Shown here in pieces: positions 10,666 to 42,373 of a DNA stretch of 64,000 nucleotides. Within the stretch, counting starts at the first letter, position 1. Each line of letters starts with the position of its first letter. Location: the IMG/VR virus record IMGVR_UViG_3300013126_000029, positions 572-64,571 of that record, one strand, 5' to 3'. The position numbers and the translations under genes are program-made. The stretch is from a virus. Its lineage: Duplodnaviria; Caudoviricetes. The notes under the pieces were generated by a model that was not told where the DNA came from, searched no databases, and saw nothing but the letters and a program-made list of their open reading frames with translations.

Positions 10666-10666
10666 G

Positions 10667-13266: not shown

Positions 13267-13303
13267 AAGTTGTTCTCCTGCCGCGCCTCTGGTCGGGGCG
13301 GGC

Positions 13304-23600: not shown

Positions 23601-26600
23601 GGCGCTCTCGGCCTTCTCTCTGGCGTCCTGGGCTCGGGCGAGCGTGATGGTGGCGGCCTGAGCCTGGGCGGCGCTCTGGCTGTACGCCTGGTGTGCCGTG
23701 CGCAGATCCTCCGGCGTGGCCTCGTCGGGCGCGTCGAGGCCAGCGGCGACGGACGCGGCGTGGTGGTGGCGCTCGCGGGCGGCGGCCACTTCGGGGTGCT
23801 TCTCGTCCACCGTGGCGTCTCGCGCCGCTGCCAGCGCAGCGGCGGCGCCTTGGGCGGCGGCGGCCTTGTCCTTGTCCTCGTCCTCGGGCGCGGCATCGGC
23901 GGCGGCGCGGGCCGCATCGTGTTTGGCCTGCGCTGCCTGAACGCTCGGGTGGTCCTCCTGAACGTGGCGCTCGCGGACGGCGCGGTAGGCGGCTTGGGCC
24001 TGTTGCGCGTGAGCCTTGGCGATCCTGCCGAACACGGCCTTTGGATCGGCCACGGCGGCCTGGGCGCGCTCGTGCTCTACGAGGGACTGCTCCCAGCGGT
24101 CGTTGGCGTTACGCGCGTCGGCCTCGGCTTTCTCGACGTCTTCGGGCGACGGCGTGCCAAAGCCGGCACCGCCGAAACCCATCGTGGGCATGTCGAACCC
24201 GAAACCGCCTTGCTCGGCTGCGGCTTCGCGGGGCGGTTCCGGGTGCTCGCTCGTCCACTTGGCCATCACTGTTTCGGGACGCAGCGCCTCGGGCATCTCT
24301 CCGGCGCGGCTGTGGAAGTAGCGGTAGAACGCCTCGCGCAGGCTGGCGCGCTCGTGGTGGCTCAACTGCTCGGTCGGCTTCCACGCGCCCACCGCGGCGG
24401 GGTGGCGCCCCAGGGTGCGGAAGGCGAGATCGTTGGCCAGTTCCGGGTCAAGCTCCTGGTGATGCAGGGTGCCGACCTTGCCCACCCGCTCGGCGTGCTG
24501 GCGGGCCAGTTCGGTGAAGTGCGGCGCGTAGCTATCGGCGAGCTGCACGGCGGCCATCTTGTCGTCGCTGCGCGATGGCATGTGCGCCTCGACCGCCTGG
24601 TGGAAGGCGGCGAGCTTGCCCTTGGCGGCGATCTCGCGGCGCTGCGCCTCCCATTCGGCGTGAGCCGGATTCGGACCCGGCTCCGGCTCGGGGTCCCATG
24701 GCATCCGCGCTTGGCCGTCGTCCTGCGCCGCCGCGGTCTTCGATGGCTCCGGGTGCAACTCCTGCCATGTCTGCACCTGCTGGCCCTGGAGATCGGCCTC
24801 GGACACCCCGGCGGCGATCCCGGCCATGTGCCCGCCGGTGTTCTGGAGGTCGAGCATGATGTCCACCGGGCGCCAACCGTCGTGCACCCGCTGGGCGATG
24901 TAGGTGCCCATCGCCTCGTGCATGTCGCCGTGCTGGGCGAGCGCGTAGTCAAATGGCTGGGCGTTGGTGGGCGCCTCGCCCTGGAAACGCTGCTCGGGGC
25001 GAACGTCGGTGCGCTCCATGAACCCGGCCGGGCGCCACTTCGGATCGTCGCGCTGGCCGGTGCGAATGGCCTCCATGTCGCGGTCGAGACGAACCTCCTC
25101 GGCATCGACCGGGCGAACCAACTTGCCGAAGGCGGCCGGCTCGACGGTCAGCCATCCGTTCTTGCCGTCGTGCTCGATGCGAAAGTCGCCGTCGTCCAGA
25201 CCCGTCGCGCGGGCGAGCCCGGCGAGCTTGGTGGGCTCGACCGGGCCTGCCGAGACGCGGATCGGGTTGGCGGCTGGGGCCATCATGGCGGCGTGCAGGG
25301 CGGCCGACGTCTCCAGGAACCCCAGGGTGCGGCCAAGGGTCTGCCGAGCCTGGTCGAGGTGGTCGATGCGCTGCTTGTTGAGGGCCTGCCACTCTCGCAG
25401 ATCGCCCTGATCCTGCATGCCCTGGTGGACCTCGTGCGCGGCCTCGTAGGCGTCGCGGGAGGTGTCCATGGCCTCGGGGATGTGGGCGTCCTGAAGGCGC
25501 AGGTGGTAGTCGCCGATGGCCTGGGTCAGGGCTTCGCCCTGCTCGGGATGGGTCTGGCGGATCTGCCAGGCGAGGAGCTTTGCGGCGCCCTCGGACCCCA
25601 ACAGGTCCACGACGTGCCGGTCGATGGTGGACCCGCGCAGGATCTCCTGGGCGTGATGGTTGACCGCGTCGAAAGTGCCCCGGCTCATGTGGCGGGCGAG
25701 ATCGGCGTGAGCGGCGTCCTGGTCCTCTTCGAGCATCTGGCCGATGTCGCGATAGGTCTCCTCGACGTGGGAGAGAAACGCGCGGGACCGCTGGGTGCGG
25801 ATCTCGCCCTGCACGGCGGCCACGACCTCGGGCGGGGGGTGGTCGGCGAGCTGCTGGGTCGGCTCGATGGCGCCGCCGCGGGGAGCTTCCCAGGGCTGCG
25901 AGGTGGCGGCGGCGGTGTCGCCGGCCATGATGGCGTTGCGGCGCCGCCGGGCCTCCTTGTCGAGGCCCCGCATCTTGAGCCCGGCCTCGAAGATGGCGCG
26001 GGCCGTCTGGCCGTCGGTCACGTCGAGGGATGGACCGTCGGCGGCCTTGGGCGGCGTCGCGTCGCCGGTGAGCACGCCGGACGCGAGGGCCTGCCGCAGG
26101 AAGGCGCGGCGCTGCGCGTCGGTGGCCTCCCCAGAGATCAGCGCCTCCTCGCCCAGTGCGTCGGCGGCCCCCTTCACGGCCGGCACCTGGTCGCCCACCT
26201 GCTCGGCGAGCTTGCGCAGATCCTCGGGGGCGGCGGTGCGCAGGCGGCGGATTGCCTGGGCGGCCTCGTGGGAGATCATGGCGATGGCCCGCGCGGGCAG
26301 GGTCTCGACGTGCTCTTGATTGAGCTGCGCCAACTCCGGCGCTCCGGCGGCCTCGCGGTGTGCCTGCTCGGTGCGCGCCGTCATCTGGCGCTCGCGGGCG
26401 GGGTCCATGAGCCCGTGGTCCACGGCGGCGGTGAGACCTCGGCGCACGGCCTCGTTGAGCTTCGGATCGGCCATCGCGTCGATGGCGTCCTGGCCGCCGC
26501 CGCGGACGGCCGCGGCCATGTCTTCCATCGCCTCGCGAGCGTCGTCGGGCATGGTGGGCGCGGTGTCGTCGCCTCCGGCCTCGGTGACGGCCTCCTGGAG

Positions 26601-28580
26601 GCGCCGGAAGGATGCCAGGCGCCTGCCGGCCAGCCGGGCAAAGGCGGCGATCTCCACCGGGCCGGCGGCCTCGATGTCGGCGTGGGTGAGCGTCGCGGCG
26701 CGCGCGTACCGCTGCGCGGTGGTGAGCGCGTCGAGCGGATCGCCGTGTTGCAGGTCGGCGTCCAGCCGGGACCGGAGCGCCTGCGCGCGGGCGAGATCGG
26801 CCTGTTGGTCGGTCAGATCGGACCGCTCGGGCTGGTAGTCGCTGCCGCCGCGCATGACCTGGCGGCCGGCCAGGTCGCTCGCGCCGATGCCGCCGTCGCC
26901 ACTCGTGGCCGGAAGCTCTCCCAGGCCGGCGGCCTCGCGGGCGTCGGTGTCCTGGGCCAGCGTCTTGCGGGCGTTGGCGACGAGAACGCGGGCCTTGCGG
27001 TAGGCGTCGGCCACGGCCTCCTGGTGGGCCTGCTCCTGTCCGGCCTCCGGCGCCTTCTCGATCTGGTCGGCCAATTCGTGATGCCCGGCGTGGCGGAGCA
27101 CCTGGACGGCGGCGGCCCGGCGGCGCTGCTGGTGCTGGCCCTTGACCTCTTCGAGGGCGTCTTTCTGGCCCTGGTCTAGCTTGGCGCTCTCGCTGGTGCG
27201 GCGGGCCTTGCGGCGCTCGGCGGCGGCCTTGCGATACTCCTCGGGCGTCTTCAGGTTCAGGCGACGCAGGTTGAGCTTGCCCCCGGCGCCCCCGATGATG
27301 TGCCCCTGGCGGGGATTGGTCGGGTGGACGCGCACCAGGACCGGCACGCCCTTCTCGTCGTGCCCGCGGGGGTGGACGGTGATCCAGCGTTCGCCGGAGG
27401 GCGCGGTCTCGCCGAAGTCGAGCTTCGGGACGCGGCCGGGCTCCTTGAAACCCTCGCGGTACTCGGCGATGGCCTTCAACAACTCGGGGTGCACCTGGCC
27501 GGCCCGCACGGCGGCCAGCACCTCGGGCTGCATGATGCGGTCGAGCGCCGCGTCGGTCCGCCCGTGGCGGTTGTAGTGTTCGAGCACGGCGTCGCCGGCC
27601 TCGTGGGGCACGGTGTTGACCACCTGCATGATCTTGGCGGCCCGCGTGCCCTGGGCCCACTTCTCGGTCGTCGCCAGCCGGTCGAGGCTGCCGGCGGCGG
27701 GCTCCGTGTACCCGGCGGCGCCCGCGGCGGCGGCGGCCTCGTGTGGGCTGTCGAAGGTCTTGTGTGAACTGAAGCCGTAGGGGTCGTATTCGCTGTAGCG
27801 CCAGCGGCCCGGCTCGCTCGCATCGGGGATCACGACGGCGTGGTGATCGGACTTGGGGTGCTTGAACTCCAAATGACCCCGGTCGAAGTGCTCCAGGGTC
27901 GCGTTCATCTTCGCCGCGGTGTCGTGGTAGGGCGAATTGACCTCCTGCAACAACTCCGGGTCGTCGCCGGCCTCCTCGGACGTGAACCCAACGACGCGGG
28001 CTCGGCGGGTCTCTGGGTGCAAGTGGACGCCGCGCTGGTCCGCCTCGACACGCTTCCAGCGGTGGCTCATGGAGTCGAACATCAGGCCGGGGGCGTTGGC
28101 GATGGGCCCGGCCTTGGCGCCCTCGGCGAAGACCACGTTGACCCAGAAGTCCACGGCCTTCGCGGCCTCGACCTGGAAGCTCCCGGTGATGTGGTCGCTC
28201 ATCGCGGCCGGGTGGAACGGCGTGTGCTCGCCGAACGTCTGGTGCCAGGCGTAGCGGCGGCGCAGCTCGTGCTCGCCATCCTGGCGCGTCTCCTCGGCGG
28301 CGGCCTTGCGGTATGCCGTCCAGGTGTCGGGGTCGTGCGTCACGCGCCCGGCGGCCCATCGGAACAGGGTCGGCCGATCCACTCGGCGGCCCATGTCCTT
28401 GAGCTGGATCAACTTCTCCAGGTCCACGGTGCGCCGGTCGTTCTGATCCTTGACCCACCGGGTCGAGGTCCGACCTCGGCTATCGGTGCGCCGCTCCTGG
28501 TGGAGCGACCCACCATGAGACGGATCGCCGGATGGAACAGGATCGTGACCGCCGAAGATGTTGAGCTGCGCAGGCTGCAT
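20646..28580 (-). CDS. Giant polyvalent virion protein with C-terminal SNF2/SF2 helicase carrying a ParB/Srx-like insertion
   Basis: 2644 aa. Helicase motifs LGTGNGKT, VDEGH, MTGTP, SDAGATGANLQ, QRNARILR. ParB-like VTDGHRRLAAA lies between motifs Ib and II. N-terminal shared motifs and an RWITVHP..G.PVLV motif. Confidence 0.85.
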   Translation of the reverse strand: MQPAQLNIFGGHDPVPSGDPSHGGSLHQERRTDSRGRTSTRWVKDQNDRRTVDLEKLIQLKDMGRRVDRPTLFRWAAGRVTHDPDTWTAYRKAAAEETRQDGEHELRRRYAWHQTFGEHTPFHPAAMSDHITGSFQVEAAKAVDFWVNVVFAEGAKAGPIANAPGLMFDSMSHRWKRVEADQRGVHLHPETRRARVVGFTSEEAGDDPELLQEVNSPYHDTAAKMNATLEHFDRGHLEFKHPKSDHHAVVIPDASEPGRWRYSEYDPYGFSSHKTFDSPHEAAAAAGAAGYTEPAAGSLDRLATTEKWAQGTRAAKIMQVVNTVPHEAGDAVLEHYNRHGRTDAALDRIMQPEVLAAVRAGQVHPELLKAIAEYREGFKEPGRVPKLDFGETAPSGERWITVHPRGHDEKGVPVLVRVHPTNPRQGHIIGGAGGKLNLRRLNLKTPEEYRKAAAERRKARRTSESAKLDQGQKDALEEVKGQHQQRRRAAAVQVLRHAGHHELADQIEKAPEAGQEQAHQEAVADAYRKARVLVANARKTLAQDTDAREAAGLGELPATSGDGGIGASDLAGRQVMRGGSDYQPERSDLTDQQADLARAQALRSRLDADLQHGDPLDALTTAQRYARAATLTHADIEAAGPVEIAAFARLAGRRLASFRRLQEAVTEAGGDDTAPTMPDDAREAMEDMAAAVRGGGQDAIDAMADPKLNEAVRRGLTAAVDHGLMDPARERQMTARTEQAHREAAGAPELAQLNQEHVETLPARAIAMISHEAAQAIRRLRTAAPEDLRKLAEQVGDQVPAVKGAADALGEEALISGEATDAQRRAFLRQALASGVLTGDATPPKAADGPSLDVTDGQTARAIFEAGLKMRGLDKEARRRRNAIMAGDTAAATSQPWEAPRGGAIEPTQQLADHPPPEVVAAVQGEIRTQRSRAFLSHVEETYRDIGQMLEEDQDAAHADLARHMSRGTFDAVNHHAQEILRGSTIDRHVVDLLGSEGAAKLLAWQIRQTHPEQGEALTQAIGDYHLRLQDAHIPEAMDTSRDAYEAAHEVHQGMQDQGDLREWQALNKQRIDHLDQARQTLGRTLGFLETSAALHAAMMAPAANPIRVSAGPVEPTKLAGLARATGLDDGDFRIEHDGKNGWLTVEPAAFGKLVRPVDAEEVRLDRDMEAIRTGQRDDPKWRPAGFMERTDVRPEQRFQGEAPTNAQPFDYALAQHGDMHEAMGTYIAQRVHDGWRPVDIMLDLQNTGGHMAGIAAGVSEADLQGQQVQTWQELHPEPSKTAAAQDDGQARMPWDPEPEPGPNPAHAEWEAQRREIAAKGKLAAFHQAVEAHMPSRSDDKMAAVQLADSYAPHFTELARQHAERVGKVGTLHHQELDPELANDLAFRTLGRHPAAVGAWKPTEQLSHHERASLREAFYRYFHSRAGEMPEALRPETVMAKWTSEHPEPPREAAAEQGGFGFDMPTMGFGGAGFGTPSPEDVEKAEADARNANDRWEQSLVEHERAQAAVADPKAVFGRIAKAHAQQAQAAYRAVRERHVQEDHPSVQAAQAKHDAARAAADAAPEDEDKDKAAAAQGAAAALAAARDATVDEKHPEVAAARERHHHAASVAAGLDAPDEATPEDLRTAHQAYSQSAAQAQAATITLARAQDAREKAESAAFEARHHGASPQWKTWRQERDAAEHGARRAASRYEAPDWETYVASHGSAPQAYRALQDFVRSRFVQEFRTLYQDHARSPLQIGVQAVDGAAGHRLAFDPDWGDRVRRFRNSAGATVRTRGRGGQFSADPYKEARERYQAQARAMEQRQTTSTAETAPDPRRAPDLDERYTLGQQAEGQLAQIVSQHAGIIDPRQTFDARTADFSGPGAKRQRAIKAWQRSRKIGMFLGTGNGKTTVAFGTFSDLKGQGRVQRGVFSVPSIVQGQFGGEALAFVNPTHMRWHARPGESKAERMAAYADPTKHVVVVTHQALRDDVTDMVATHLGMSREQVAAHLTDGEVKAQAPEIDHLDKMRELAQVRPDQMVRQSDYDRAARNAYVGGASSRTTPAQMPSYPVGTWKVDDTFRGMYGSDVEHLQEFDPSDLVTTEQNVEGNTEGRGDDADRYAEWARSGEHGEPPPIQVVQAEDGSMRVTDGHRRLAAARKNGQKVKAWVSYAAHTGRLDSNGRPMVAGLTHELAIHRAHEAGDAPQAWHSQALPDLAEKMRQADVRPVQGAPARAVQPWSEDETDQHIRAALTAHDAHALLDFVAVDEGHVALNRKGKEDSHLARVIDSLGRLAKYCGYMTGTPVKNDTSELYDQLKKVAPHKYGDGPNKTSLAEFTRRYGTDPTTAGPALRAELRRRAFLTEAPMPFEPNYRTERIDPTPEQAEALDGAQRAYERVSAARRAGTVNVEAARALAPTAFASLAPTDEAGAREVAERVHRSPATFREAALNRHVNMHPQGAKLAHLDKLIGELRTQPLPRGARESAEDHKKRTAAGDTHRRAGVIFAHNHEAVAQIAAHLRAQGHRVETITGKDTGKAKTRKREAFDQGDHDILILSDAGATGANLQARASWIVNHDTPATYHTWKQRNARILRVGQRMGRPDVFTFQVDHPWEHDAAARMERKRGLHVPLYAEDDESQDEGGLAHLIRQHLHEAASPLAPPV

Positions 28581-28586: not shown

Positions 28587-28615
28587 GTTCTACCGCGCGC
28601 GGCCCGCTCGCTCAA
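28587..28615 (-). promoter_or_regulatory. Putative promoter TTGAGC-N17-TAGAAC (possibly leaderless transcript)
   Basis: -10 ends 6 nt before the ATG at 28580; no SD sequence is visible. Confidence 0.35.
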
Positions 28616-31600
28616 TCCGCGGCCTGCGCTCCCGGACCGAAACCGACGGCCACCCGGAAGCCTTTGGCGGCTTCGCGGTAGTGGGCGGGGTTCTCGGCCA
28701 GGTGATCCATGGCGATCTCCTGGGCGATCCCGCGGTCGTCGGTGTGCTCGGTCTCCTCCTCGGTGCCCTCGGCAAGGTCGTCCGGGTCGAAGTCCTCGGG
28801 CTCCATCTCGTCGGCGGGGCCCCCGTGCAGGCGGTCCTTGTGCGCCGCCTTGCCGGTCTCGTCGGGCGGGAGGAGCGGATCGGTGCCGGGGTGCGGGTTG
28901 CCGTGTTCGTCCACCTTGAGCTTGCTCTGCCAGTGCTCCGGGATTCGGCCGGCCGGAAAGAAGCGCCCGGTCAGGATCGGGTGCTTCATCGCGCCTTGCA
29001 GGAACTTCGCCACGGTGTCGCGGCGCTTCACCGGGTCCTGGTGCCAGGCGGCGTCCGCCGCGGCGGCCTCGGCCTCCTTGCGCTGGTGCTCGGCCGCTCG
29101 CTGAACCCGCTCGGCTTCGGCCTGGCGGGCGCGTTCCTGGGCCTGCTGTTGCGCCTGGCTCTCGGCTTCGGCGCGAGCCTTTTCGATGCCTGCCCGGTGG
29201 GCCTTGGTCTCCGCGCTGGGCTCGGCGTTGGCCTGGGCGGCGGTGTGCGGCATGAAACCGCCCTCGTCGTGCTGGTCGCGGATGAAGTGCAGGGTGTAGC
29301 CGTCGGCGTCGTTCTCGCTGCGCAGGACGCCGTGCTCGTGGCCGGTGTCGTCGCCCCAGGTGGCCACCGGGCGCCACGCTTGCTTGGCTGGGTGCCAGTA
29401 TTCGAGATCTTCCGGCGGGATGGCCTGCTTGGTGTAGCGGCTGCCCTCGACGTCCTCGTTGCCGACCGGGTCGACGACGGTGCGGCGTTTCGTCGCGCGG
29501 AGCATGACCGGGACGCGCTTCGTCAACGGCCCGTCGCCGTGCTGGTCTTCGAGCTGGTCGCCAACCTTGCCGTGCCACTCTTTCGCGGCCTGGAAATGGT
29601 GGGAGAGAAAGACCTTGCCCTGGCTGTGGTTGGCGTAGGCCCCGTGACCGTAGAGCCCTTCTCCGCTGCGAGGCTGCAAGCCCTTGCTGGCGATCTGCGG
29701 CATCGAAGCGTGGCTGGTGGTGTGAAACAGGTGCCCGGCCGGCTGGTCGTCGCGCGTCCAGCGGTGCGAGGTCGGGTCGAGGTGCAGGCCGGGGGCGTTG
29801 GCGATGGGCCCGGCCTTGGCGCCCTCGATGAGATCCCACCGGGCCGGGCCGGCGGCGGCGCCGGCCTCCCAACGGATCTTGTCGGGCTCGGCGTACCCCA
29901 GTCGATTGCCCGACCGGGCTCCGCCCCCGCCGGCTGCTTTGCCTTCGACCCGCGCCACTGGGCGCAGGCCCTTCTCGCGCAGGGCTCGATAGGTCGTGCC
30001 GTCCTCGGTGCTCAAGCTGTAGGTCACGAACAGGGCCGGGGCCTCGGCGTCGCCTCGTTTCGAGCGGTCGAGGAGGTCGATCATGCGCGCCGCGAGCTTC
30101 GACGACGCGCCCTTGGTGGTCCCGTCCGACGCGATCCGGGTCAACTCCAGGATGTTGCGCGGGTCCACCCGCCCGTTGCCCCAGCGCCCGGTCGGCGTGC
30201 CGGCGGTGGCGACGGCCACCAGGCGCCCGCCCCGCATGCACCCGACGGCGTAGATGAGCCCGCGCGGGTTCATCTCGGGCATCTGGCTGTGGTGCTCGGC
30301 GATGAACGCTCGGGCGGTGTCCAGCGGCACGTTCACCAGGCGGAGCTTGCCGGCGGGCGCGATGGCGTCGGCCAGGATCTCGCGCACGATGATCGCGGGG
30401 ATGAGCCCGCCGCGATCTGCGGACTCGGCCACAAGCGCAACGGCATCGGCTGCATCTTGCGGGCGCCACTCGGGCATGCCGATCAAGCCCGGAAGCTCGT
30501 CCGCCCGGATGGTCATGGGATCGTCCTCGAAGCTCTCCTCGGGCGCCCACTCGCGGGCGTGGCCGGCGTCGTGCAGGGCGCCCTCGATGAGGTGGACCTC
30601 CCCACCGTCGAAGATCCGTCCGACGTGCTCGACGATGTTCGCCGCTCGTCGTTCGGCTTCGGCCCGCTCGGGCGTGATTTCGGCGTGGCCGCGCTCGCCA
30701 GGGGCGGGCGCTCCGGCGTGGCCCATCGCGGCGTGCAGCGGCTTTGTTCTGACGTGCCGGTGCTCCGTCCGGCCCCGGCGGTCGGTGCGCGTTTCGAGGT
30801 GCAGGCGGCCACCGTGGTCGAGATCGGTGAGGAACGACAACTGCATCGCCTTGGCGCCCTCTCCGAACGCGATGCGGATCGCGCGCCGCTTGCGGACCGT
30901 GGTCGAGCCCGCGCCGGTGATGAAGCGGTGCCAGGCTCGGTCGAGGGCGACCTCGGCCCACGGCATCTCGTAGTTCTTCGGCGAGTCCTCTCCGCGGGTG
31001 TGCTGTTGCAACCACCCGTCCGGGTCGGCCACAAACGCGGCGGTGGCGTCCTTGTCCAGGTCCATCTCCGCGGCGATGCGGCGGCGCTCGGCGGCCGACG
31101 TCCACCCGCCCGGAAAGCCGATCTCGTCGGTGTAGTCGGCGAGGTCGGGATCGGTGGCGGCGAACGCCGATTCGGCGACGTCCTCGCGCACCTTGTCCTG
31201 GGCGGCGGTGAGCTTCCGCGGCGGTCCTTTCTCGGGACGGCCCACGGCGGCGGTGATGGCGACGCTGTCCAGGGTCACGCGGGCACCGGGGCTTGTTTCG
31301 GCGACGATGCGCTCGATGTCGGGGAAGCGCGTCGAGCGCGGGCCCACCCCGAGAAGATGGAGCGCCAGCGGGCGGCGGGGTCGCAGGAACGCGGCCAGAT
31401 CGGCGTCGCTGGTGGCGTCTTTCTTCATGGGGATCGCGGGCGTCCAGTCGGTGCCCAGAATGGCATCGACCCGCGCCGCGAACGCAGCCATCGACACGGC
31501 GCCTTTCTGGATCGGCACCAGGATGTGCGCGCCCTTGGCGCGGATGGCGCGCACCCGGTCGGCGTAGCGCGTGAGCCGGCGCAGGGTCTCCTCCTGGTCT

Positions 31601-34107
31601 GCGACCTTGTCCGGTGCGACGGCGTAGAGCTGGCCTCCCAGGGCGTCGGCCATGCGGTCGTACAGGTCGAGGCGGCGTGTCCATTCGGCGTGGGTGATGG
31701 GATCTTTGTCCACCGGCCCGTCCGGCGTGAACGCGATCTCTCCGAACGCCCCCGAGTCGAGAAAGAAGCGCACCAGGCGGCCGTCGGGAGTCGTCCGCCC
31801 GCGCAGGGCGGCGGCGGCCGTCTCGGCCTCGCGGTTCATCTCGCTCGCCGTCGCTCCGGGGTTGATCCCGATGTCGGCGAAACCGGCGATCTCTCCGGCG
31901 TGGTTCGACCCGCTGGCAAAGTATCCTCCCAGGTCGATCTTGAACGTCTCGGCCTCGTTGAACAGGGCGAGTTGCGCCGTCGCTGCCGGCCCGGCCGGCG
32001 TGGTCGTGACCCATCGGCGCTCGGTGCGCCCGCGCTTGTCCGTCCGCGTCTCGGCGTGGAGGCGGCCTCCGTGGGTCGGCTCGAAGAGACGCATCTGGTC
32101 GGCGGCCTTCCCGGCCTCCGGTGGCGAGTCGGCGGCGAGCGCGTCGGCCAGCTCGGTCAGCGCCAGATCGGCCCGGAACTTGTGCCCGACGCGACGTTCG
32201 AGGGCGACATACTCGCGGAACAACGCCGGGTTGGCCTGGGCGGCGATCTTCAGGTCGTCGCGGGTGGCGAAGACACAGAAGACGCAGGACAACCGGCGCA
32301 TGCCGAGGTCGTAGGCCCCGTGATAGGGCGTGCCGGCGTCGCGGATGCGCCGCCAGACGTCGCCCTCGGTCCAGTGGTGGATGGGCAACCACTCGTCCAC
32401 CTGCCGCTTGCCGTTGCTCGCCCCGTCGTCGCGCTCGAAGACGGGCATCTTGGCGCGGTTGCTGCTCTCGTCGGCTCGCAGGCCCATGCAGTTGAGAATG
32501 CGCACCGGCGCGCCCTTGCGGCCGATCTCGTCGGTCAGGCGCGTCATGAGGGTGCGGATGGGGCCGCGCTTGTGGTCGGAGGTGCAGTAGCGCGACGCGC
32601 TCGACGGCCAGGCGATCTCCTTGCCGAAGTCCACCGGATCGGCCTCGGCCTTGCCGTTCTTCAGCTTGCGTTCGGCGGCCTGCTTGAGCTTCCGGGCGCG
32701 TTCGTCGGGGGCCTGCGCTCCGTCCGCCTGCGCCGGCCCGATGAGCCCGGCCAGCGTCTCGGCGCTCGCCCCCGCGAGATCGCCCCAGGTCCGCACGCCG
32801 GACTTGGCGAGGGTCGCGACGTCGTGGCTGCGCTGCTGGAGGTCCACGGCCCGCTGGTCGATCTGCTCGATGAGGTCGCCCTTGGTCTTCTGTACGACCT
32901 CGAAGCGCAGGCCGTAGTGCCGGGCCTGCGCCTCGGCCAGCTCGCGGGTGCCCTCCCATTCCACGCGCCCCAGATCGGCGTGCACGACGACGACGCGGTC
33001 GAGCACGCCCTGGGCGCGGGCCTGGGCGACCACGTAGTCGAGCATTGCCTGGCTGTCCTTGCCGGCGGAACTGTTCACCAGGATCGTGTCGTAGTCGCGC
33101 AACGACGGCTCGGGATGAGCCGGGGCCGGGCTCGGGTCGTGGCCCAGTCCGTCAAGGCGGTTCTGGGCGCGCAGGCCCGGCGCCGTCGGCGCTGCGCCTC
33201 GCGCGCGGGGCGCCCGCTCGCCGATCTGCACCAGGGCCTCGGGCGGCGGCTTGATGCTTGGCGCAGTCGAGAAATTCGGGGCCGTTTTTGGGTCGATCTT
33301 GGCCTGCGGCGCGGTTCCGGTGCTCGAACTTTCGGCGGTAATCCACCGGGCCTCGCTGCGCCCGGTCGCGTCGGTCCTGGTCTCCTTGTGGAGCCGGCCA
33401 CCGTGGCTCGGATCGCCCATGAGGTCGAACATGCTCATGGTGTTCGTGTCGCGGCGGTCGATGGCTTTCCCACCCTCTTGCGTGTCGGCCAGCTCGGCGA
33501 TCTGCCGGCGCACATACTCCAGGCGCCGCCAGGCGTCGTCCAGGGACGAGTCGCGATCCACCGGCGGCGGCTCGGCGCTCTGGGCCTCGTGCAGGTTGAG
33601 GGGGCGGCCCCGCTGCTTGGCGTCGGCGAGGAGCGCCCCCAGGCGGGCCACCGGGATGCCCGTCACCTCGCCCTGGACGCCGCGCACGTCGTAGGAGGCC
33701 CGAAAAGTGCGCAGGGCCTCGCGGCGGGTGGCGAACCCCACCATGACCTTGTCCTCGTCGTAGCGGCCGGTCTTCGGGTCTTTGGCCCGGATGACCCACG
33801 CGGTCGGAGCGTCGCGCTCGGGCCCCACGAACACGTCCACGGCGTCGCCGTCCACGCCCAGGGTGCCCCGGAACTCGCCATAGTGCGCGGGCATCAGGAC
33901 GGCCCACGGGCTGCCGTCCTGGCCTCTTCCCTGGCGCACGGTGCCCTCGGGCGTCTCGACGTCAACCGTGGGCAGGCCGGGCACCTGGACGGTGCCGTGG
34001 TGGTGGTATTCCTGCGGCCGGCGGGACTCGGCGGGCGGGTCGAGCGGCAGGGCCTTGTGCCCCTCGCGGATGGCCTGGAGCTGAAGCAAGAGGCCGGCGG
34101 CGGTCAT
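28612..34107 (-). CDS. Polyvalent protein: inorganic-PPase-like + PAPS-reductase/DndC-like + TGT-like + GNAT (XF1762/Mom-like) + ART-like + DUF5661-like
   Basis: Start re-chosen at ATG 34107 (1831 aa). Motifs: HYGEFRGTLGVDGDAVDVFVG/DEDKVMVGF; NSSAGKDS/HADLG/YCTSDHK/GLRADES/RLSCVFC; FLDSGAF/APDKV/LHLLG; FIAEHH/LELTRIA/VTYSLSTEDG; LFHTT..IASKGL/VFLS/IPPEDL; EHTDDRGIAQEIAMDHLAE. Confidence 0.85.
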   Translation of the reverse strand: MTAAGLLLQLQAIREGHKALPLDPPAESRRPQEYHHHGTVQVPGLPTVDVETPEGTVRQGRGQDGSPWAVLMPAHYGEFRGTLGVDGDAVDVFVGPERDAPTAWVIRAKDPKTGRYDEDKVMVGFATRREALRTFRASYDVRGVQGEVTGIPVARLGALLADAKQRGRPLNLHEAQSAEPPPVDRDSSLDDAWRRLEYVRRQIAELADTQEGGKAIDRRDTNTMSMFDLMGDPSHGGRLHKETRTDATGRSEARWITAESSSTGTAPQAKIDPKTAPNFSTAPSIKPPPEALVQIGERAPRARGAAPTAPGLRAQNRLDGLGHDPSPAPAHPEPSLRDYDTILVNSSAGKDSQAMLDYVVAQARAQGVLDRVVVVHADLGRVEWEGTRELAEAQARHYGLRFEVVQKTKGDLIEQIDQRAVDLQQRSHDVATLAKSGVRTWGDLAGASAETLAGLIGPAQADGAQAPDERARKLKQAAERKLKNGKAEADPVDFGKEIAWPSSASRYCTSDHKRGPIRTLMTRLTDEIGRKGAPVRILNCMGLRADESSNRAKMPVFERDDGASNGKRQVDEWLPIHHWTEGDVWRRIRDAGTPYHGAYDLGMRRLSCVFCVFATRDDLKIAAQANPALFREYVALERRVGHKFRADLALTELADALAADSPPEAGKAADQMRLFEPTHGGRLHAETRTDKRGRTERRWVTTTPAGPAATAQLALFNEAETFKIDLGGYFASGSNHAGEIAGFADIGINPGATASEMNREAETAAAALRGRTTPDGRLVRFFLDSGAFGEIAFTPDGPVDKDPITHAEWTRRLDLYDRMADALGGQLYAVAPDKVADQEETLRRLTRYADRVRAIRAKGAHILVPIQKGAVSMAAFAARVDAILGTDWTPAIPMKKDATSDADLAAFLRPRRPLALHLLGVGPRSTRFPDIERIVAETSPGARVTLDSVAITAAVGRPEKGPPRKLTAAQDKVREDVAESAFAATDPDLADYTDEIGFPGGWTSAAERRRIAAEMDLDKDATAAFVADPDGWLQQHTRGEDSPKNYEMPWAEVALDRAWHRFITGAGSTTVRKRRAIRIAFGEGAKAMQLSFLTDLDHGGRLHLETRTDRRGRTEHRHVRTKPLHAAMGHAGAPAPGERGHAEITPERAEAERRAANIVEHVGRIFDGGEVHLIEGALHDAGHAREWAPEESFEDDPMTIRADELPGLIGMPEWRPQDAADAVALVAESADRGGLIPAIIVREILADAIAPAGKLRLVNVPLDTARAFIAEHHSQMPEMNPRGLIYAVGCMRGGRLVAVATAGTPTGRWGNGRVDPRNILELTRIASDGTTKGASSKLAARMIDLLDRSKRGDAEAPALFVTYSLSTEDGTTYRALREKGLRPVARVEGKAAGGGGARSGNRLGYAEPDKIRWEAGAAAGPARWDLIEGAKAGPIANAPGLHLDPTSHRWTRDDQPAGHLFHTTSHASMPQIASKGLQPRSGEGLYGHGAYANHSQGKVFLSHHFQAAKEWHGKVGDQLEDQHGDGPLTKRVPVMLRATKRRTVVDPVGNEDVEGSRYTKQAIPPEDLEYWHPAKQAWRPVATWGDDTGHEHGVLRSENDADGYTLHFIRDQHDEGGFMPHTAAQANAEPSAETKAHRAGIEKARAEAESQAQQQAQERARQAEAERVQRAAEHQRKEAEAAAADAAWHQDPVKRRDTVAKFLQGAMKHPILTGRFFPAGRIPEHWQSKLKVDEHGNPHPGTDPLLPPDETGKAAHKDRLHGGPADEMEPEDFDPDDLAEGTEEETEHTDDRGIAQEIAMDHLAENPAHYREAAKGFRVAVGFGPGAQAAD

Positions 34108-34427
34108 TCTGCGTCCTGGTCTTCGAGGATGTAGTCCTCGCCCTCCGGGGTCTGACAGAACGGCGAGCCGGGGCAGTCCTGGGCTCGCTCGGCCTGGAAC
34201 TCGAACGCCTCGGCGACGGCCTCCAGGAACGGCCGGTCGTTGTACCAGGTCGCGGCCAGCGGATCGGCGTAGGCTCCCAGGTGGGGGATATTGGCGCGGG
34301 TGAACCCCAGGCGCTTCAACCACCGCTTCACGATCCACCAGTAGGGGCCGAAGTTCCGGTAGTAGGCCGGCTCGGTCTGGAGCGTCTGCACGAGGAGGGT
34401 CGCGGTCTCCTTGGTCGGGGTGATCAT
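34104..34427 (-). CDS. Small hypothetical protein (107 aa)
   Basis: GGAGG RBS; ATG overlaps the DarB-like gene stop; MITPTKET...YRNFGPYWWIVKRWLK. Confidence 0.7.
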   Translation of the reverse strand: MITPTKETATLLVQTLQTEPAYYRNFGPYWWIVKRWLKRLGFTRANIPHLGAYADPLAATWYNDRPFLEAVAEAFEFQAERAQDCPGSPFCQTPEGEDYILEDQDAE

Positions 34428-37400
34428 TTGCGGTCCTCCGAATTGATCCGCCGGATGGCCTCCCTGACGAGACCGTGGTCCTCGCCCTGGCCTCCGACCA
34501 CGCGGTTGTGGGCGTTCTTCCACTCGTAGCTCGGCTGGTACTCGTAGCGCCCGGTGTTGCTCATGGAGCCGTGCCGGCCATGGGTGTAGACGGGTTTCTT
34601 GCCCTCCGCGCGCAGGTGCGCCACCAGGCCCCGCACGATGGCCTCTCGGTCCTCGCCCCACGGCAACAGGCCGACGGCGTCCTTGGCCTCCGGGGTGCCG
34701 GCGCGAACCGCGGCCACCGCGTCCCCTCGGCGGACGAAGACGTGCCCGTGCTTGGCGTCCGCGGCGGATAGGTTGGCGATCTGGCGGGCCTCGGGCTCGA
34801 ACTCGCGGCGGATGTCCTTGGGCCAGTCGCGCATCTCGGCGAGGGCGCCGCCGGCCAGGCTGGGGTACTTCTTGGCGCTGTCGAGCTTCGCCTTGATTTC
34901 GGGTCGATAGGCGTCGGCCTCCGTCTCCGGTCCGGTGTGGGTGACGTATTCGGGCAAAAGCGCGGCCGAGATCGTGGGATTGTCGCTCCAGGAACGGCGG
35001 CGCGGCCCAAACGGGCGCACCGTGACGCTGCCCCTGACCGGGTCCACGTCGGTGATGACATGGCCGGAGTCGGTGACCTTGTCGCCCTTCGGGTGGATGA
35101 CGTCGCCCACCTTCAGGATGGCGCCGGTGGTCGGGACCGCCACGCACGGGACGTTCGTGTCGAGCGCCTGGCGCAAAGGCTTGGGAAGCTCGGTCACCCG
35201 CTTCAGACGCTCGGTGTCGAGGCGGATGTTCTCGGCCAGCCGGCGAGCGGCGTGGCTCGTCTTGTCGGGCATCTTGGCCAGCGCGGAGCGGCGCTTGATG
35301 ACACCCTGCCAGTCGCGCATGGCTTTGGCGCGGGCGGCGTCCTGGAGCGCGGCGACGCGGGCTCCCCGGTTGGCCTCGAAGGTCTTGCGGGCCTCCTCCG
35401 GGTCGTCGGCGAGCATGATCTGAAGCTCCTCCGGGCTGAACTTCTCACCCTCCTCCGTGTTCTCGGCGTAGTCGGACCCGCTGTAGAGGTTGGCGACCCA
35501 CCCCTGCTTGCCGCTCAAGATGGCGTGGCGGTAGCTGTCGAAGCTGCGCTTCGAAAAGTAGGTGTGGATCTTGACCCGGTCGTACTTGTTGCCCTGGCGC
35601 ACGGCCCGGCCCTCGCGCTGGTGGTACTTGCCGGGGCTCCACGGCAGGTCGAGGTGATGCAGGTCGGAGGTGTTCTGCTGAAGATTGACGCCCTCGCCCA
35701 TCGTGCCGGTGTTGCCGATGACGATCCGCGTCGTGCCCTTGTTGAACCGCTCGCTGATCGCGTACCGCTTGTCGGCGTCGGCCGCGGTCTTCGCGTTCAG
35801 GATCTCGATCTCCTTCTCGGGGATGCCGGCCTCCACCAGGAGCTTTTTCAGGGCGGTGTGGCTGTCGTTGCGGTCGATGAATACGACCTGCCCGCCACGG
35901 CCCGCCTTGAGGTTCTTCACGATGGTTCCCACGGCCTCGTGGTACTTCGGGCTGTGCCGCCACTCGCCCGCGTGCTCCGGGTGCTCCTCGGCGAGCAAAG
36001 AAAGGTCCGTGCCGGCGGCGTTGAGCTGGTGCAGAAGCCAGAACGTCGCCGCGGCGGCGACCCTGGGATCTTTGTCCAGCTTGCGGCGCTCGAACTCGTC
36101 GCGGATGTCCCGGAACGCCTGGTGCTGCTGGGGGGTCATGTCCACCAGGTGCTCCTCGCGCTCGACCTGGGGGAGTTTGAGGTTGACCTCCTTGGCGGTG
36201 CGGCGCCGCAGTCCGCGCTCCATGACCTCGCGCAGCTCGTTCATGTTCTTGAACCCGACCGCGCACTGGGCCATCTCGGCCTGCTGGTTCGTGTTGATGA
36301 TCGTCCGCTCCTCGATGTCCACGTAGCGGTCGATGAATTCCTCCAGGTTGCGCACGCCCACCTGGCGCCAGACCTGGGGGGTGGCCTGGAGCATGAGGTG
36401 GTAGACGTCCATCGGGCTGTTCTTGGCCGGCGTGGCGGTGAGGAGGAACACCCCGTTGCCGTTGACGCCCAGACCGTCGGCGCCGTTCTGGCTCATGCGC
36501 TGCTGGTGCGCCTCGTCGGTCTCGTCGGGCTTGCGCCGCTCGCGCACCAGGGCGGCCTTGAGCTGGAGGTCGTGGGATCGCTTCACGTTGTCAGAGCTGG
36601 ACCCCATCATCTTGACCTCGCCCCCGCGGGACCGCGGGCTGCCGAGGTTGGCGAAGTTGTGGGCCTCGTCCACGAACATCGCGTCGATACCCAGATCCTC
36701 CCAGTGGATGATGCTCTGCTTGACCCCGAAGGCGAGCTTCGCCCGCTCGGCCTGGTAGGAGGCGAGGGCTTTGGCGAGCTTCTTCTCGCGGCTGTCGAGC
36801 GAGACGGCGACGGTCGATTCGCGGGCGCTCAACTTCGACGCCCGGCGGGCCCAGAAATCGTCTCCCTCGAAGCGGGTGACGTTCTCGTCGCGAACCGGGA
36901 TGCGGGCCTGCGCCTCGTAGGTAAACAGGACCATGTCGTAGTCGTTGGCGGCCAGATCGGCCAACTTTCTCGTCAAAGCCTCGTCGCTGTCCGCCTCGGC
37001 GACGTACTCGGGCACCTGCGGATCGTGCCAGGTCTTCTTGGGCTTCTCCTTGCTGGTCGCCCCGACCACCAGAACCTTCGCGCCGGGGTGCAGCTTTTCG
37101 ATCTCCTTCGTCCAGTTGATGATGACCGACTTGGGGCAGGTGACCGCCACCTTGCGGGCCTGGCCGCTGATCCGCATCTGGCGCGCGGTGGCGATGGTGT
37201 TAAACGTCTTGCCCAGACCCACGTCGAAGGCCACGATGCCGCCCCGGCGGTCGGTGTTCCACCGGATCTGCTCGTAGTGGTAGGGGTGCAACTCGAAGGT
37301 GAGCCCGTCGATCTTCATCGGCGTGCTGTTCAGGCGCCGCGGCACCTGCCCGGTGAAGCGGCGGTTGTAGACCTCCTCGACGTCGTTGCGCAGGTCGGAG

Positions 37401-40400
37401 GAGGCCAACCAGGATCGGAACTTCTCGTCGTCGCTCTCGGCTTGCTCGCGGGCCCGCTCGCCATGCAGGGGGAGCCGGTTCATGTAGCGCAGGACGTTGC
37501 GGAACGGGGCCGAATCGGCCGCGCCGGAGTAAGTGAAGCCGTCGCCGCTATGCTTGCCCCGCTGCCCATTCTTGTTGAGAAAAGAGACGGTGTAGACGCC
37601 GCCGGCCTCGGTGACCTTGAAGTCGCTGAAGTCGCTTTGCCACTCGGACAAGGTGCCTGGTGTGTTAAGCCACGCCTCGATGACGTGGGGCGGAATCCAC
37701 CCGCTGCGCACCGACACCTCGACCTGGTCGAGCGGGCGCCAGCGTTCGTCGATGTGCCGTTGCACCAGGGCGAGCCGGGCCTCGGCGCGCTGGCGGGTGG
37801 CCTCGTCCTCGCTCGCGGCCATCTCGTGCTCGTGGTCGCGCACGGCGAAGAGGTCTCCGCTGGCGTAGTCGTCGGCGTGCAGGACTGCGGGCGCGTCTCC
37901 CTCGACGCCGAACGCCCCGCGCGCGTCCACGTACTCGCCGCTCTGCACCAGGCCGGCGACGACGAGATCGTCGTCTGCGGCGGCCGGGAAAGCCTCGCGG
38001 AGCTGCGCCACGGTGATCGGCGCGCCGGGGTTGTGGGTGGCGAGGTGGCTCGCGGCCTCGGCCACGCTGGTTACTCGGACGGCGACGTCGCCGCGCGCGG
38101 CGGGGGGGATGACCGGGTCGGTGGTCAGGACGTCGGCCATCGACTTGTCGGCGTTCACGGCGCTCACCAGGTGCGCGATGTTCGCGTCCTGGTTGGCGAG
38201 GGCCTGGATTTCGGGGTGCTTGCTCGGCACGCCGTAGTTCTCGACCCAAGCGTTCAGATCCTTCTGGAGCTTGCGCCGGATGCCGCGGGCTCGCAGGTAG
38301 TCGCCGCGCTCCATGGCGGAGCGCAGGTCGCCGTAGCGCAGGGCCAACTCGCCCGCGCTCTTGAGGGCCGCGTCCCCGCTGTGCATCAGTTCGCGGGCGT
38401 CGTCGATGCTGTCGAGCCGGCGCCAGCGCAGCTCTCCGCTCGGGTCCGGGGTGAGGATGTACGTCTTGCCGGCGATCACGGTCTGGCTGCCGCGCACCGA
38501 CGGCGGCTCGGCCACGGCGGACTTGGCCGTTTCGAGCGAGTCGCGCACCCGCTGATCGGCGTGTGCGGCCATCTCCTCGGCCGTGACGGCCTGGCCGGCC
38601 TGGCTCTGGGCCCACGATGCGGTGCCACGCGCCCGGATGAGGGGGGCGCAGGCGTCGGCGTTGCCCTCGACGAGATCCCCACCGCGCCAGTCCTTGCCGA
38701 CCGTCCCCAGGACGCGGTCGGGCTTGTCGTCGAACCAGCGCCCGAAGATGAACGCCTCGTCGTGCGTGCCGACCGCTCGCGCGACCTGCTCGCCCCCGCG
38801 GGCGAGCGCGGTCGCGACGACCTCGGGCCGCTTGCGCAGGATGATGACGTCGGAAACGACCGTGGTGTCGGCGTGCTTGAACGCCTCGACCGGCAGGCGG
38901 AAGGCGTCCACCAACTCGGCGCGCTCGCCGAGTCGGTGCCGGAAGTCCTGCATGCCGTCGTTGGACATGACCCCGCGGTGCACGATCATCGCCACCAATC
39001 CGCCCTCCTTGACCTGGTCGAGGGCGGTGTCCACGAAGTAGGCGTCGGCGGAGGTGTACTCGGGCTTGTGGATGCGGGCCCCGTCGCCGGTGCGAGTGCA
39101 GAACGGGGCATTGGTGATGACCGCGTCGAAGCGGTCGCCCACGCCGCGCTCGCGGGCGACCGCGAAGTGCTCGAAGCCTTGGGCGTGGATGGTGTGTCGG
39201 GCCCCATGCAGGCTCGACGCAACGAGGGCCACCTCGGGGTCGATCTCGACGCCGGTCATGGTGACGCCCTCGGGGGCGGTCTGCATAAAGACGCCTGATC
39301 CGCAAGCGGGCTCCAGCACCTTCGCGTTCGTGGGGAGCCCATGGTGGGCGAGCAGATCCCACATGGACGCCGCGATGTCCGGGCGGGTGAAGTACTGGTT
39401 GAGGCTGTCGCCGATCCCGCCCCTGCCGGAGTAGAGCGCGACCTGGTCCATTTCCTTCTGGGTCAACTCGCGGCCCTGCCCCACGGCCTTCTGGATGAGC
39501 GCGACGGCGGCGCTGTTGGCCTCCTTGCGCTGCTTGGGCGTGAGGTCGCGGCCGAAACTGTGCGTGCTGGCCTTGGGCCCGCTCGACGCCTGCGCGGGCT
39601 CCACCTTCGGCGTCTTCGTTCCGGCAATAATCCGGTCTGCCTCGGCCTCGGCGGCCTGGCTCATGGCTGCCTGCATCTCTTCGGTCGGCTCTCCGGTGGG
39701 CCCGGTCTCGTCGCTCCAAAGGTGGTCGAGAAGTTTGGTGACAAGCGCGGCCCGGCGTGCAGGCGTCCAGTCGCCCTTGGCTTCCATGTCGGTGAGGTGA
39801 AGGCGTTGGTGGAAGTTCTCCAAAGACTCCTGAAGCGAGCGCGACGGGGCGGCCTCCGCCGGTGGCGGTCCATCGACGATCTCGGCGGCGCCGGCCTGGG
39901 CGGCGCGGGCCAACGTCTCGTCGGACACGGGCGGGCCCTGGGGCGCCCCCTCGGGCCGCCAGCCGGCCTCGCCCTTCTGCCAGACCTGCGTCCCGTCGTC
40001 GTGAGCGAGCGTGACCTGGGCACCGGCGGGGGCGCTCTCCAGGTACTCGACGGTCCGGGCGGGCTCGGCGACCGGATCGGGGCGCTGCGGCGGCTCGGCC
40101 TCGCGGGTCGGGAGCTTGGCCGGCTCGGCCTCGCGCACCGTCTGGGCGAGCTTGCTCGCCACCTCGTTCAGGAAGGCGTCCCGGCCGAGCTTGTCGAGCC
40201 CGTCGAAGTAGAGCATGCCCCACCCCTTCGCGTGCTCGTCGGCGTGGCCCAGCGCGTCGGTGCGCGCGGTGGCCTCGTCGGCTGCCAGATCCTCGATCTG
40301 CTTCTGGATGCCGAGCACCAGGCCGTCGCGGTCGTTGACCGTCGCCATCTGTCGGAACCCCGGATCGGCGGCGAGCTTGGCCGCGAGGTCACCCTCGACG

Positions 40401-42328: not shown

Positions 42329-42344
42329 GGCAGACCTCGCCGCG

Positions 42345-42373
42345 AGAATCCGCCATCGGCCCACGCCGGTCAA
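42345..42373 (-). promoter_or_regulatory. Putative promoter TTGACC-N17-GATTCT upstream of the DarB-like gene
   Basis: Intergenic; good -35, weak -10; GAGG RBS follows. Confidence 0.3.

Follow-up and report, generated by a model that had tools for sequence, protein, structure and literature searches.

Polyvalent proteins are defined as polypeptides of phages or conjugative elements that carry two to fifteen unrelated domains each, and they routinely combine unrelated activities; the pyrophosphatase domain InPase is confined to the phage-type members, which are probably packaged, and may clear pyrophosphate (PPi) (PMC5512222). In Salmonella DpdA, Asp95 serves as general acid/base and Asp256 as nucleophile, Phe99, four residues after Asp95, stacks on the base, and the edge of the base is read by Asp130 and His181; guanine exchange is abolished by the D95A and D256A mutations, and DpdA and TGT enzymes have in common both the three Asp and a structural zinc site (PMC10164549). 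The Mom protein of phage Mu modifies adenine in double-stranded DNA at N6 with glycine taken from Gly-tRNA, is expressed late and acts post-replicatively, and R111, S124 and a helix-turn-helix (HTH)-like insertion (approximately residues 175-209) are essential (PMC13219725). In the BREX-related capture (BRC) defence, a GNAT/TGT module has been proposed as a DNA-modification (marking) apparatus (PMC12839542). Here we describe a gene for an 1831-residue polyvalent protein with PAPS-reductase-like, DpdA-like and Mom-like domains, encoded in the IMG/VR virus record IMGVR_UViG_3300013126_000029. The 64,000-nt stretch analysed (positions 572 to 64,571 of the record), hereafter the window, is almost the whole of this linear record of 64,571 nt, which is 74% complete according to CheckV.

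The window protein is a phage-type polyvalent protein, a known class (Iyer et al. 2017), because several unrelated enzymes share one phage polypeptide, InPase is among them, a DarB-like giant protein is encoded upstream and a helicase giant downstream, and the gene is situated in the head module. At least four distinct enzyme domains are found in this one open reading frame (ORF) of a viral record, in the order InPase, phosphoadenosine phosphosulfate (PAPS)-reductase-like PP-loop ATP pyrophosphatase, TIM barrel of the DpdA/TGT superfamily, Mom-like (XF1762) GNAT, a C-terminal domain without family match and a DUF5661-like tail (Table 1). As to the linkage to head-morphogenesis genes (MuF or portal) from which packaging is deduced in this class, the gene is placed between those for the portal and the major head protein, and no MuF or protease family was detected among its neighbours. 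Since the terms PAPS, Mom, TGT and queuine have 0 occurrences in the main text of Iyer et al. 2017, the combination of PAPS-like, DpdA-like and Mom-like domains is not described there (PMC5512222).

Three enzyme-like domains in a single ORF had been proposed in an initial annotation made from the sequence, and all 11 motifs on which it relied do lie in one minus-strand frame, at the positions given there; each of the three domains is independently supported, far above chance. The N-terminal InPase, the C-terminal domain and the DUF5661-like tail were additional to that annotation. The longest frame (28612..34338) opens with a GTG and comprises 1908 aa, the first 77 residues being rich in Arg and Pro. 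The database gene call P0002 starts instead at M78 (ATG 34107-34105) and gives 1831 aa. Because of this call and the ATGA overlaps of a 107-codon ORF upstream, the gene is taken as 28612..34107. Residue numbers refer to the 1908-aa frame, and 77 is to be subtracted for the 1831-aa protein. A GC content of 0.89 at codon position 3 (GC3) in a window of 71% GC shows that the frame is coding.

The TIM barrel belongs to an unnamed family that is here called family X. An exhaustive HMMER search of 1.84 billion representatives retrieved 852 relatives at E ≤ 1e-3 and 338 at E ≤ 1e-30, counted as representatives of clusters at 50% identity; many are stand-alone proteins of ~350-430 aa, and many are fusions. 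An AlphaFold2 model with 46 relatives as alignment (mean pLDDT 94.1, pTM 0.90) shows a beta/alpha barrel with a helical extension at its C-terminal end. The structural comparison with Foldseek that the initial annotation had put forward as a check was run on the barrel and on the GNAT domain, and the top PDB structures were TGT and Mu Mom, respectively. For the barrel, ranks 1-21 were all bacterial TGT (best E 3.0e-6, TM-scores 0.34-0.39), with generic TIM barrels next, and among viral models a homologue fused to an ART-PolyVal domain came first (1.2e-19), with phage queuine tRNA-ribosyltransferases next (1.3e-4 and 1.9e-4).

At the sequence level the barrel profile was aligned by hhalign to the DpdA of phage 9g (probability 73.7%, E 2.9e-5), with FLDSGAFS paired to FLDSGAFS, VAPD to VLDG, HLLGxG to KVHGFG and xDS to CDSS. 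In an alignment of 47 family members, D121, H205, G208, G210 and D235 are invariant, and conservation is 90% or more at D72, S73, A75, F76 and Q155. In the numbering of the protein these columns include D861, F865, D910, Q944, H994 and D1024, where D861, D910 and D1024 correspond to D72, D121 and D235. The order and motif context of the three Asp, together with the Phe, are those of Asp95, Asp130 and Asp256 in Salmonella DpdA, an equivalence drawn by sequence alignment and not by superposition. In place of the His181 of DpdA, bacterial TGT has a Gln, with which Q944 would agree. From sequence and model we conclude that the barrel represents a new family in the deazaguanine-transglycosylase superfamily, nearest to DpdA, and it looks catalytically intact.

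The barrel region gave no match in Pfam, PHROG, NCBIfam, PADLOC or the PDB sequences; two stand-alone members likewise gave none in NCBIfam and PADLOC, and a profile of the family had 0 matches in the PDB. Across the 47 members Pfam returned scattered weak matches, the best recurring one being DUF6610 (3/47, best E 0.0065), and none of the members matched PF01702 or PF23859 at E ≤ 1. With tblastn no match was found in 50,697 GenBank phage records, and plasmids gave 22 weak matches, all labelled hypothetical, on large plasmids of Pseudomonas, Shewanella, Alteromonas and Azonexus. Filing the barrel under Beta_protein, after the label "T4 beta protein family" of the nearest cluster in a protein atlas, was dropped, PF14350 having no match in the window. 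The earlier description of the domain as TGT-like is thus tenable at the level of the superfamily, with DpdA as the closest member, on account of the TIM barrel and the three Asp, but it extends neither to membership of the Pfam TGT or DpdA families nor to the zinc site.

The GNAT domain matched the NCBIfam model XF1762_fam (NF045478) at 1.6e-11 over profile positions 2-142 of 143, with 44.3 bits in hmmscan and, when all six frames were searched, 49.9 bits, or 50.3 if neighbouring stretches are included (cut-off of the model 50), and it matched phrog_1384, "Mom-like DNA modification protein", at 7.4e-9. The structure model, made from 13 sequences, has a core with pLDDT ~90 and a poor N-terminal part (mean 68.9); in the PDB it matched Mu Mom best (8bv8_B, 1.1e-8), with ordinary GNATs ranking lower. 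An hhalign comparison with Mu Mom (probability 47%, E 2e-4) aligned H1350, R1401 and S1413 to H58, R111 and S124; the match ends at Mom residue 132, and D149 and R151, which with these three make up the catalytic residues of Mom, lie beyond the aligned part. A true Mom, encoded at the viral locus L039 described below, has extra segments where the GNAT domain has a short loop. Judged by alignment and model, the domain is Mom-like in its predicted fold and core residues, and, scoring at the cut-off of the XF1762 model, it is a probable member of that family and not of the Mom family. The initial assignment to a Mom/XF1762-like GNAT was apt, with XF1762 and not Pfam Mom as the probable family. 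No literature on the XF1762 family was found.

The PP-loop domain was matched in two stretches by PAPS_reduct (PF01507, 7.6e-17), with 62.3 bits against a cut-off of 22.5 and 69.1 bits summed over the stretches of the frame, and by phrog_424, "phosphoadenosine phosphosulfate reductase" (1.3e-38). Its PP-loop motif SAGKDS comprises residues 424-429. In the PADLOC defence library the top match was BrxP (1.1e-15), followed by SspD (0.0017) and DndC (0.0021); the NCBIfam DndC model TIGR03183 reached 11.2 bits against a cut-off of 290.4, and no cysteine desulfurase partner (Aminotran_5) was found in the record. The name PAPS-reductase-like PP-loop enzyme is secure, and of the initial label "PAPS-reductase/DndC-like" the second half is too specific. 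Four of the five Cys of the protein (585, 617, 685 and 688) are in this domain.

According to tblastn, the closest relatives of the PP-loop domain are stand-alone PAPS-reductase-family genes on Streptomyces and mycobacterial plasmids and in Streptomyces phage Gilgamesh, with 43-46% identity over ~310 residues where the match is a single piece. To our knowledge none of these relatives has been given a function by experiment. Among the papers listed for PAPS reductase and bacteriophages, none bears on the function of this clade. The domain also contains a variable insert of ~80-100 aa (residues ~495-575, about 32610-32855, minus strand), which by eye only has the look of a helix-hairpin-helix (LAKSGVRTWGDLAG...LAGLIG). 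It is present in phage Gilgamesh and in P0004, and missing in other relatives, where the plasmid matches split into two pieces.

A match to phrog_10089, "DarB-like antirestriction", covers the InPase region. InPase and PAPS-like domains are fused in the window protein, in P0003, P0007 and P0010 and in the related record G038, and a fusion of InPase to a PP-loop enzyme that would release PPi appears to us a sensible pairing. A linker motif of ~25 aa with the consensus HGGRLHxETRTDxxGRxExRW occurs in three copies that divide the first four enzyme modules from each other. The C-terminal domain had no Pfam or PDB sequence match; in the protein atlas it lay near a PARP-bearing cluster (0.91, with PARP in 16% of members) and an Arr cluster (0.89), with few shared features, which makes an ADP-ribosyltransferase (PARP/Arr) a weak lead. 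Direct sequence searches of the PDB with the three regions lacking a family match returned nothing, or matches at chance level (bactofilin 0.029, Fab chain 0.074).

Close relatives of the protein differ by whole cassettes bounded by the linker motif, which suggests recombination at this repeat. P0003 (85% identical) has InPase, the PAPS-like domain and the C-terminal domain, and neither barrel nor Mom-like domain. The proteins of G038 (93% complete; locus L161 = G038:C1:12000-31000, ORF 9676-14232) and G039 have InPase, the PAPS-like domain and the Mom-like domain (84% identity), with no family X anywhere in the record; compared with G038 the window protein has exactly the barrel and one copy of the linker motif extra. 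P0003 had suggested that the barrel and the Mom-like domain are gained or lost as one cassette, an idea that was rejected since G038 and G039 carry the latter without the former.

Our preferred account, which we regard as fairly probable, is that the gene encodes a polyvalent protein which is delivered from the capsid and whose modules modify nucleic acids independently of each other: a base-exchanging barrel, a Mom-like GNAT and an adenylating PP-loop enzyme with InPase. Either intact or cleaved at the linker motifs, the protein would be packed in the capsid and enter the cell with the DNA, like the Dar proteins of phage P1; the DarB-like neighbour points to such packing and entry. At or soon after entry the modules may act separately on nucleic acid and blunt host defences of the restriction type. 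Since the TIM barrel retains the acid/base Asp with its stacking Phe (DSGAF) as well as the Asp residues for base recognition and nucleophilic attack, it would probably replace a guanine-type base by one of the 7-deazaguanine type supplied by the host, in DNA or, with lower likelihood, in tRNA. The Mom-like GNAT probably moves an acyl or aminoacyl group onto a nucleobase, as Mu Mom does with Gly-tRNA; because ARAGORN found zero tRNA or tmRNA genes in window positions 1-64000, a tRNA-dependent GNAT would need host tRNA. The PP-loop domain probably adenylates its substrate and frees PPi, which the fused InPase could remove. The notion of an injected toolkit, voiced in the initial annotation, fits by analogy with the polyvalent architecture and the portal/capsid position of the gene, and the undescribed modification suggested there is possible.

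Several observations weigh against this account. The barrel has no Cys (those of the protein are at 585, 617, 685, 688 and 1367) and the family has no conserved Cys column, so the domain is without the structural zinc site. The record had no match to PF01702 TGT (E ≤ 0.001), to PF23859 DpdA or PF14350 Beta_protein (E ≤ 10), or to Pfam Mom PF25680 (E ≤ 10, and E ≤ 0.1 in hmmscan). The HTH-like insertion of Mom is absent, alignment and model showing only a loop of ~22 residues between the last two strands. QueC, QueD and FolE are all missing from the record, so a 7-deazaguanine substrate would have to be supplied by the host, and among 38 X-bearing records QueC was detected in just 2. Pfam and PHROGs revealed neither a MuF domain nor a prohead protease beside the gene, and a location in the virion is therefore argued solely from gene position and analogy. 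The place of the gene in the late operon is equally expected of an enzyme that modifies progeny DNA, because Mu Mom is a late, non-packaged enzyme. The co-occurrence statistics given below ignore the relatedness of the records. X proteins often stand alone, and since G038 and G039 have a Mom-like domain without X and P0003 has neither, the two are not obligate partners and are probably independent modules. As to partner genes, que, folE and dnd had been reported missing, and this proved correct for the entire 64,571-nt record (74% complete), in which QueC, PTPS/QueD, GTP cyclohydrolase I, TGT, Aminotran_5 (DndA-type) and ParB_N had no match; the lack of ParB_N also means that no DpdB-type ParB partner for the barrel is present there.

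To see how often the barrel is found near Mom-type GNATs, fusions were counted by single-sequence phmmer on the best 150 of the 852 X representatives. Among these, 44 were at least 600 aa long, and they included a Mom-like domain in 11 (in either order), a PAPS-like domain in 3 and InPase in 4. At 51 viral loci scanned with 10-kb flanks and our own profile hidden Markov models, the Mom-like domain accompanied X in 9 and the PAPS-like domain in 5. The corresponding figures for 27 bacterial-genome loci were 4 (L053, L055, L067 and L069, always in the ORF adjacent to X) and 6, and the X and Mom-like ORFs overlap in L067, L069 and L055. In whole X-bearing viral records (n=38), XF1762_fam was found in 11 and PAPS_reduct in 9, and all three occurred together in 5. 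Pfam Mom was present in 7/38, and in the three of these without XF1762 (G016, G026 and G027) it lay 2.5-4.2 kb from X.

Besides G000, the 38 records cover 37 viral loci; the other 14 of the 51 were dropped because they look redundant or lie on very short contigs (L005, L006, L014, L021, L023, L024, L026, L027, L031, L032, L035, L036, L044 and L049). As control served 46 InPase-selected viral records, none with X, taken from loci L081-L132 of 80 InPase loci, minus L084 and L085 (records already X-bearing) and minus L102, L103, L106 and L107; L133-L160 were left out of this set, and the positive control gave its signal. XF1762 occurred in 11/38 X-bearing records and in 4/46 control records (Fisher p 0.02, unadjusted for kinship). 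With this record and two near relatives removed, p was 0.01, likewise unadjusted for kinship.

Three loci may be described individually. At L039 (9956-14466, record 97% complete) a barrel gene precedes a group of genes on the opposite strand, namely a radical-SAM (QueE-like) gene, QueC, a 135-aa ORF and a true Pfam Mom. This locus, in whose record neither QueD nor FolE was detected, is the only clear link that we found between family X and genes for 7-deazaguanine synthesis. At L067 (1826-11023, bacterial metagenome-assembled genome) separate ORFs encode a DarB-like methylase and SNF2 giant protein, an M15-like protein, a Mom-like protein and X, in an order that echoes the window. L063 (658-16537, acidobacterial metagenome-assembled genome) has X and a PAPS-like gene beside a coupling protein of the TraG/TraD type IV secretion kind, an AEP-TOTE primase and Rad52, and looks like a conjugative-element context. 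A task carried out as foreign DNA enters a cell would agree with the finding of family X in phages as well as in conjugative elements.

The proximity of the two enzymes might mean that the barrel, the Mom-type GNAT and perhaps also the PP-loop enzyme catalyse successive steps of one hypermodification, in which the barrel would insert an amine- or carboxyl-bearing 7-deazaguanine in DNA and the GNAT, or the PP-loop enzyme by adenylation, would decorate that base. Such a coupled pathway is favoured by the fusions in both orders, including the small proteins P0147 (669 aa) and P0105 (716 aa) in which single-sequence searches show only these two domains, by the separate neighbouring genes of L067, L069, L055 and L053, by the closeness to X of two GNAT subfamilies (XF1762 and Pfam Mom) and by the grouping of X with QueE-like, QueC and Mom genes in L039; BRC defence, likened here by its description, reportedly also combines a GNAT gene with a TGT gene, in some cases as a fusion (PMC12839542). 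We nevertheless consider it unlikely, given that G038 and G039 keep the Mom-like domain and have no X, that 24 of the 38 X-bearing records are without a Mom-type GNAT in three record-wide searches, and that a mixture of unrelated activities is routine in polyvalent proteins. A prediction of a complex between the barrel and the Mom-like domain scored 0.00 against a mark of 0.32, which speaks neither for nor against binding. An extended version of the same idea, for which we would give rather little credence, is a mobile two-enzyme unit, the counterpart of the BRC GNAT/TGT module: the barrel would swap guanine for a host-derived 7-deazaguanine with a reactive side chain and the GNAT would (amino)acylate this base, possibly from a charged tRNA as Mom does, so that a new nucleobase would be installed on incoming DNA by capsid-carried enzymes. 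No paper joining Mom-like proteins, transglycosylase, phage and DNA modification was found.

The setting of the gene bears on a second alternative, namely that the protein is a late enzyme co-expressed with the head genes, which modifies replicated phage DNA before packaging, like Mu Mom, and is not a virion component. The gene belongs to a high-GC, sheath-tailed phage (GC ~71% throughout the window, with nearly all genes on the minus strand), and it is the middle one of three giant ORFs (2649, 1908 and 2644 codons, GC3 0.89-0.91) in the interval from portal to capsid. That it sits in a late structural operon, that no MuF or other capsid-targeting domain was detected and that Mom itself acts post-replicatively after late expression (PMC13219725) would all agree with such an enzyme. 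On the other hand, an InPase domain and a DarB-like giant neighbour are both characteristic of phage polyvalent proteins that are packaged, and ~27 kb of enzyme-rich giant ORFs within a head module would be unusual for ordinary late metabolic genes; we hold non-injected action to be improbable. Fainter still is the prospect that the modules hit host tRNA, RNA or proteins and not phage DNA, stopping translation or disarming defence through tRNA base exchange or acylation, conjugation of nucleobases to proteins or erasure of a self-mark of the host: tRNA enzymes belong to the TGT superfamily, a 2026 preprint reports a deazaguanine-to-protein enzyme and regulatory TIM-B proteins, some GNATs such as TacT acetylate aminoacyl-tRNA (PMC13219725) and the record is without que genes, but DpdA, to which the barrel is closest by sequence, and Mom, to which the GNAT is closest by structure, both act on DNA, and the neighbours are DNA methylase and helicase proteins.

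Table 1. Features of the polyvalent protein gene and of its surroundings, in window positions; residues are those of the 1908-aa frame.
Feature	Position	Strand	Basis
1831-aa polyvalent protein gene	28612..34107	-	ORF list and translation, GC3 0.89, database gene call P0002, ATGA overlap with upstream small ORF
InPase (type I inorganic pyrophosphatase-like), residues 112-233	33640..34005	-	Pfam PF18823 4.4e-31, 107.9 bits against cut-off 26.8
Linker motif copy 1, InPase/PP-loop boundary	33331..33441	-	Regular-expression scan, six frames
PAPS-reductase-like PP-loop ATP pyrophosphatase, residues 415-727	32158..33096	-	Pfam PF01507, phrog_424, PADLOC BrxP
PP-loop motifs	NSSAGKDS 33052-33075; YCTSDHK 32569-32589; GLRADES 32464-32484; SCVFC 32275-32289	-	Motif search
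Linker motif copy 2, PP-loop/TIM-barrel boundary	31999..32106	-	Regular-expression scan, six frames
TIM barrel (family X) with C-terminal helical extension, residues about 805-1160	30859..31926	-	AlphaFold2, Foldseek, hhalign, family alignment
TIM-barrel motifs	FLDSGAF 31744-31764; APDKV 31603-31617; LHLLG 31348-31362; TLDS 31264-31275	-	Motif search
Predicted active-site residues of the barrel	D861 31756-31758; F865; D910 31609-31611; Q944; D1024 31267-31269	-	Conserved alignment columns
Linker motif copy 3, TIM-barrel/Mom-like boundary	30739..30849	-	Regular-expression scan, six frames
Region of about 110 aa preceding the GNAT	30349-30666	-	Conserved in 4/170 fetched relatives
Mom-like GNAT (XF1762 family), residues 1334-1490	29869..30339	-	NF045478, phrog_1384, Foldseek 8bv8, hhalign
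GNAT motifs	FIAEHH 30289-30306; LELTRIA 30130-30150; VTYSLSTEDGTTYRA 29983-30027	-	Motif search
C-terminal domain without family match, residues about 1500-1700 (HLFHTTS... region)	29239..29841	-	83% identity in P0003
DUF5661-like tail	28675..28767	-	PF18905 22.1 bits, under cut-off 27
Upstream neighbour, 2649-aa DarB-like giant protein (N6 DNA methylase and SNF2 helicase)	34424..42373	-	Pfam N6_Mtase 7.7e-9, SNF2-rel_dom 3.5e-21, Helicase_C 8.2e-10
Downstream neighbour, 2644-aa giant protein with helicase C-terminal domain	20646..28580	-	Pfam Helicase_C 1.4e-8
Linker motif copy 4 (HGG[RA]LHxETRTD), within large head-module ORF 43699..47400	about 46740-46830	-	Regular-expression scan, six frames
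Large terminase	51046-53823	-	PHROG match
Portal	48634-50484	-	PHROG match
Major head protein	16322-17812	-	PHROG match
Tail sheath	5622-7457	-	PHROG match
Tape-measure-like protein with peptidase end	1740-4310	-	PHROG match

Two further ORFs near the gene deserve mention. The 107-codon ORF (34104-34427, minus strand, in another frame) is wedged between the DarB-like giant gene and the polyvalent gene; its ATG overlaps the stop codon of the former and its own stop overlaps the ATG at 34107, in both cases as ATGA, and because of these overlaps it is probably translationally coupled to both flanking genes. For the head-module ORF with the fourth copy of the linker motif, GC3 suggests a start near 47400 and not at 47832.

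Polyvalent proteins, DpdA enzymes and Mom enzymes are each already known separately. What is not described, as far as our searches reach, is a zinc-less DpdA-like family such as X, its frequent proximity to Mom-type GNATs, and the combination of PAPS-like, DpdA-like and Mom-like modules in one giant protein of the head module. The giant gene most likely helps the phage to evade bacterial defences. The 852 representatives of this DpdA-like TIM-barrel family in viral contigs and conjugative elements are concrete candidates for new DNA modifications, and if the barrels exchange DNA bases, modification of the 7-deazaguanine type would be far commoner in uncultured mobile elements than one would gather from the DpdA families known so far. 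Base-exchange enzymes delivered by the capsid would, if our preferred account is true, constitute a new anti-restriction route.

Compared with known systems, the window protein shares features with five. In BRC defence a GNAT is paired with a TGT homologue, "occasionally fused", a likeness drawn only from the description in the paper; unlike the phage gene, that module belongs to a defence system, where it is linked with PglZ and HerA (PMC12839542). This BREX/BRC study was the only one found in a literature search for DpdA and "polyvalent protein". With BrxP of BREX type 4, DndC and SspD, the PP-loop domain has in common the PAPS_reduct fold and the SxGxDS motif, although the models of DndC and SspD are matched at only E ~0.002, far under their curated cut-offs. 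The barrel resembles DpdA of phage 9g and of Salmonella Montevideo (PMC10164549) and bacterial TGT in its TIM-barrel fold, with TGT as the top structural match, and the DSGAF motif and the order of the three Asp are the same as in 9g DpdA. It differs from DpdA and TGT, which have a zinc site, in being without one, in a family-specific helical C-terminal extension and in that preQ0 genes are rarely linked. The GNAT domain shares its fold and counterparts of H58, R111 and S124 with Mu Mom (8bv8; PMC13219725); Mu Mom has the essential HTH-like insertion and the Pfam Mom match, neither of which the GNAT domain has, and the latter forms part of a giant protein, in which a conserved region of ~110 aa comes before it. 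The MuF or zincin peptidase domain of the polyvalent proteins of Iyer et al. was not detected in the window protein, and with that class, including the DarB/Dar antirestriction proteins of P1, it shares the build of a giant multi-enzyme phage polypeptide, the InPase domain, the DarB-like neighbour and the place in the head module.

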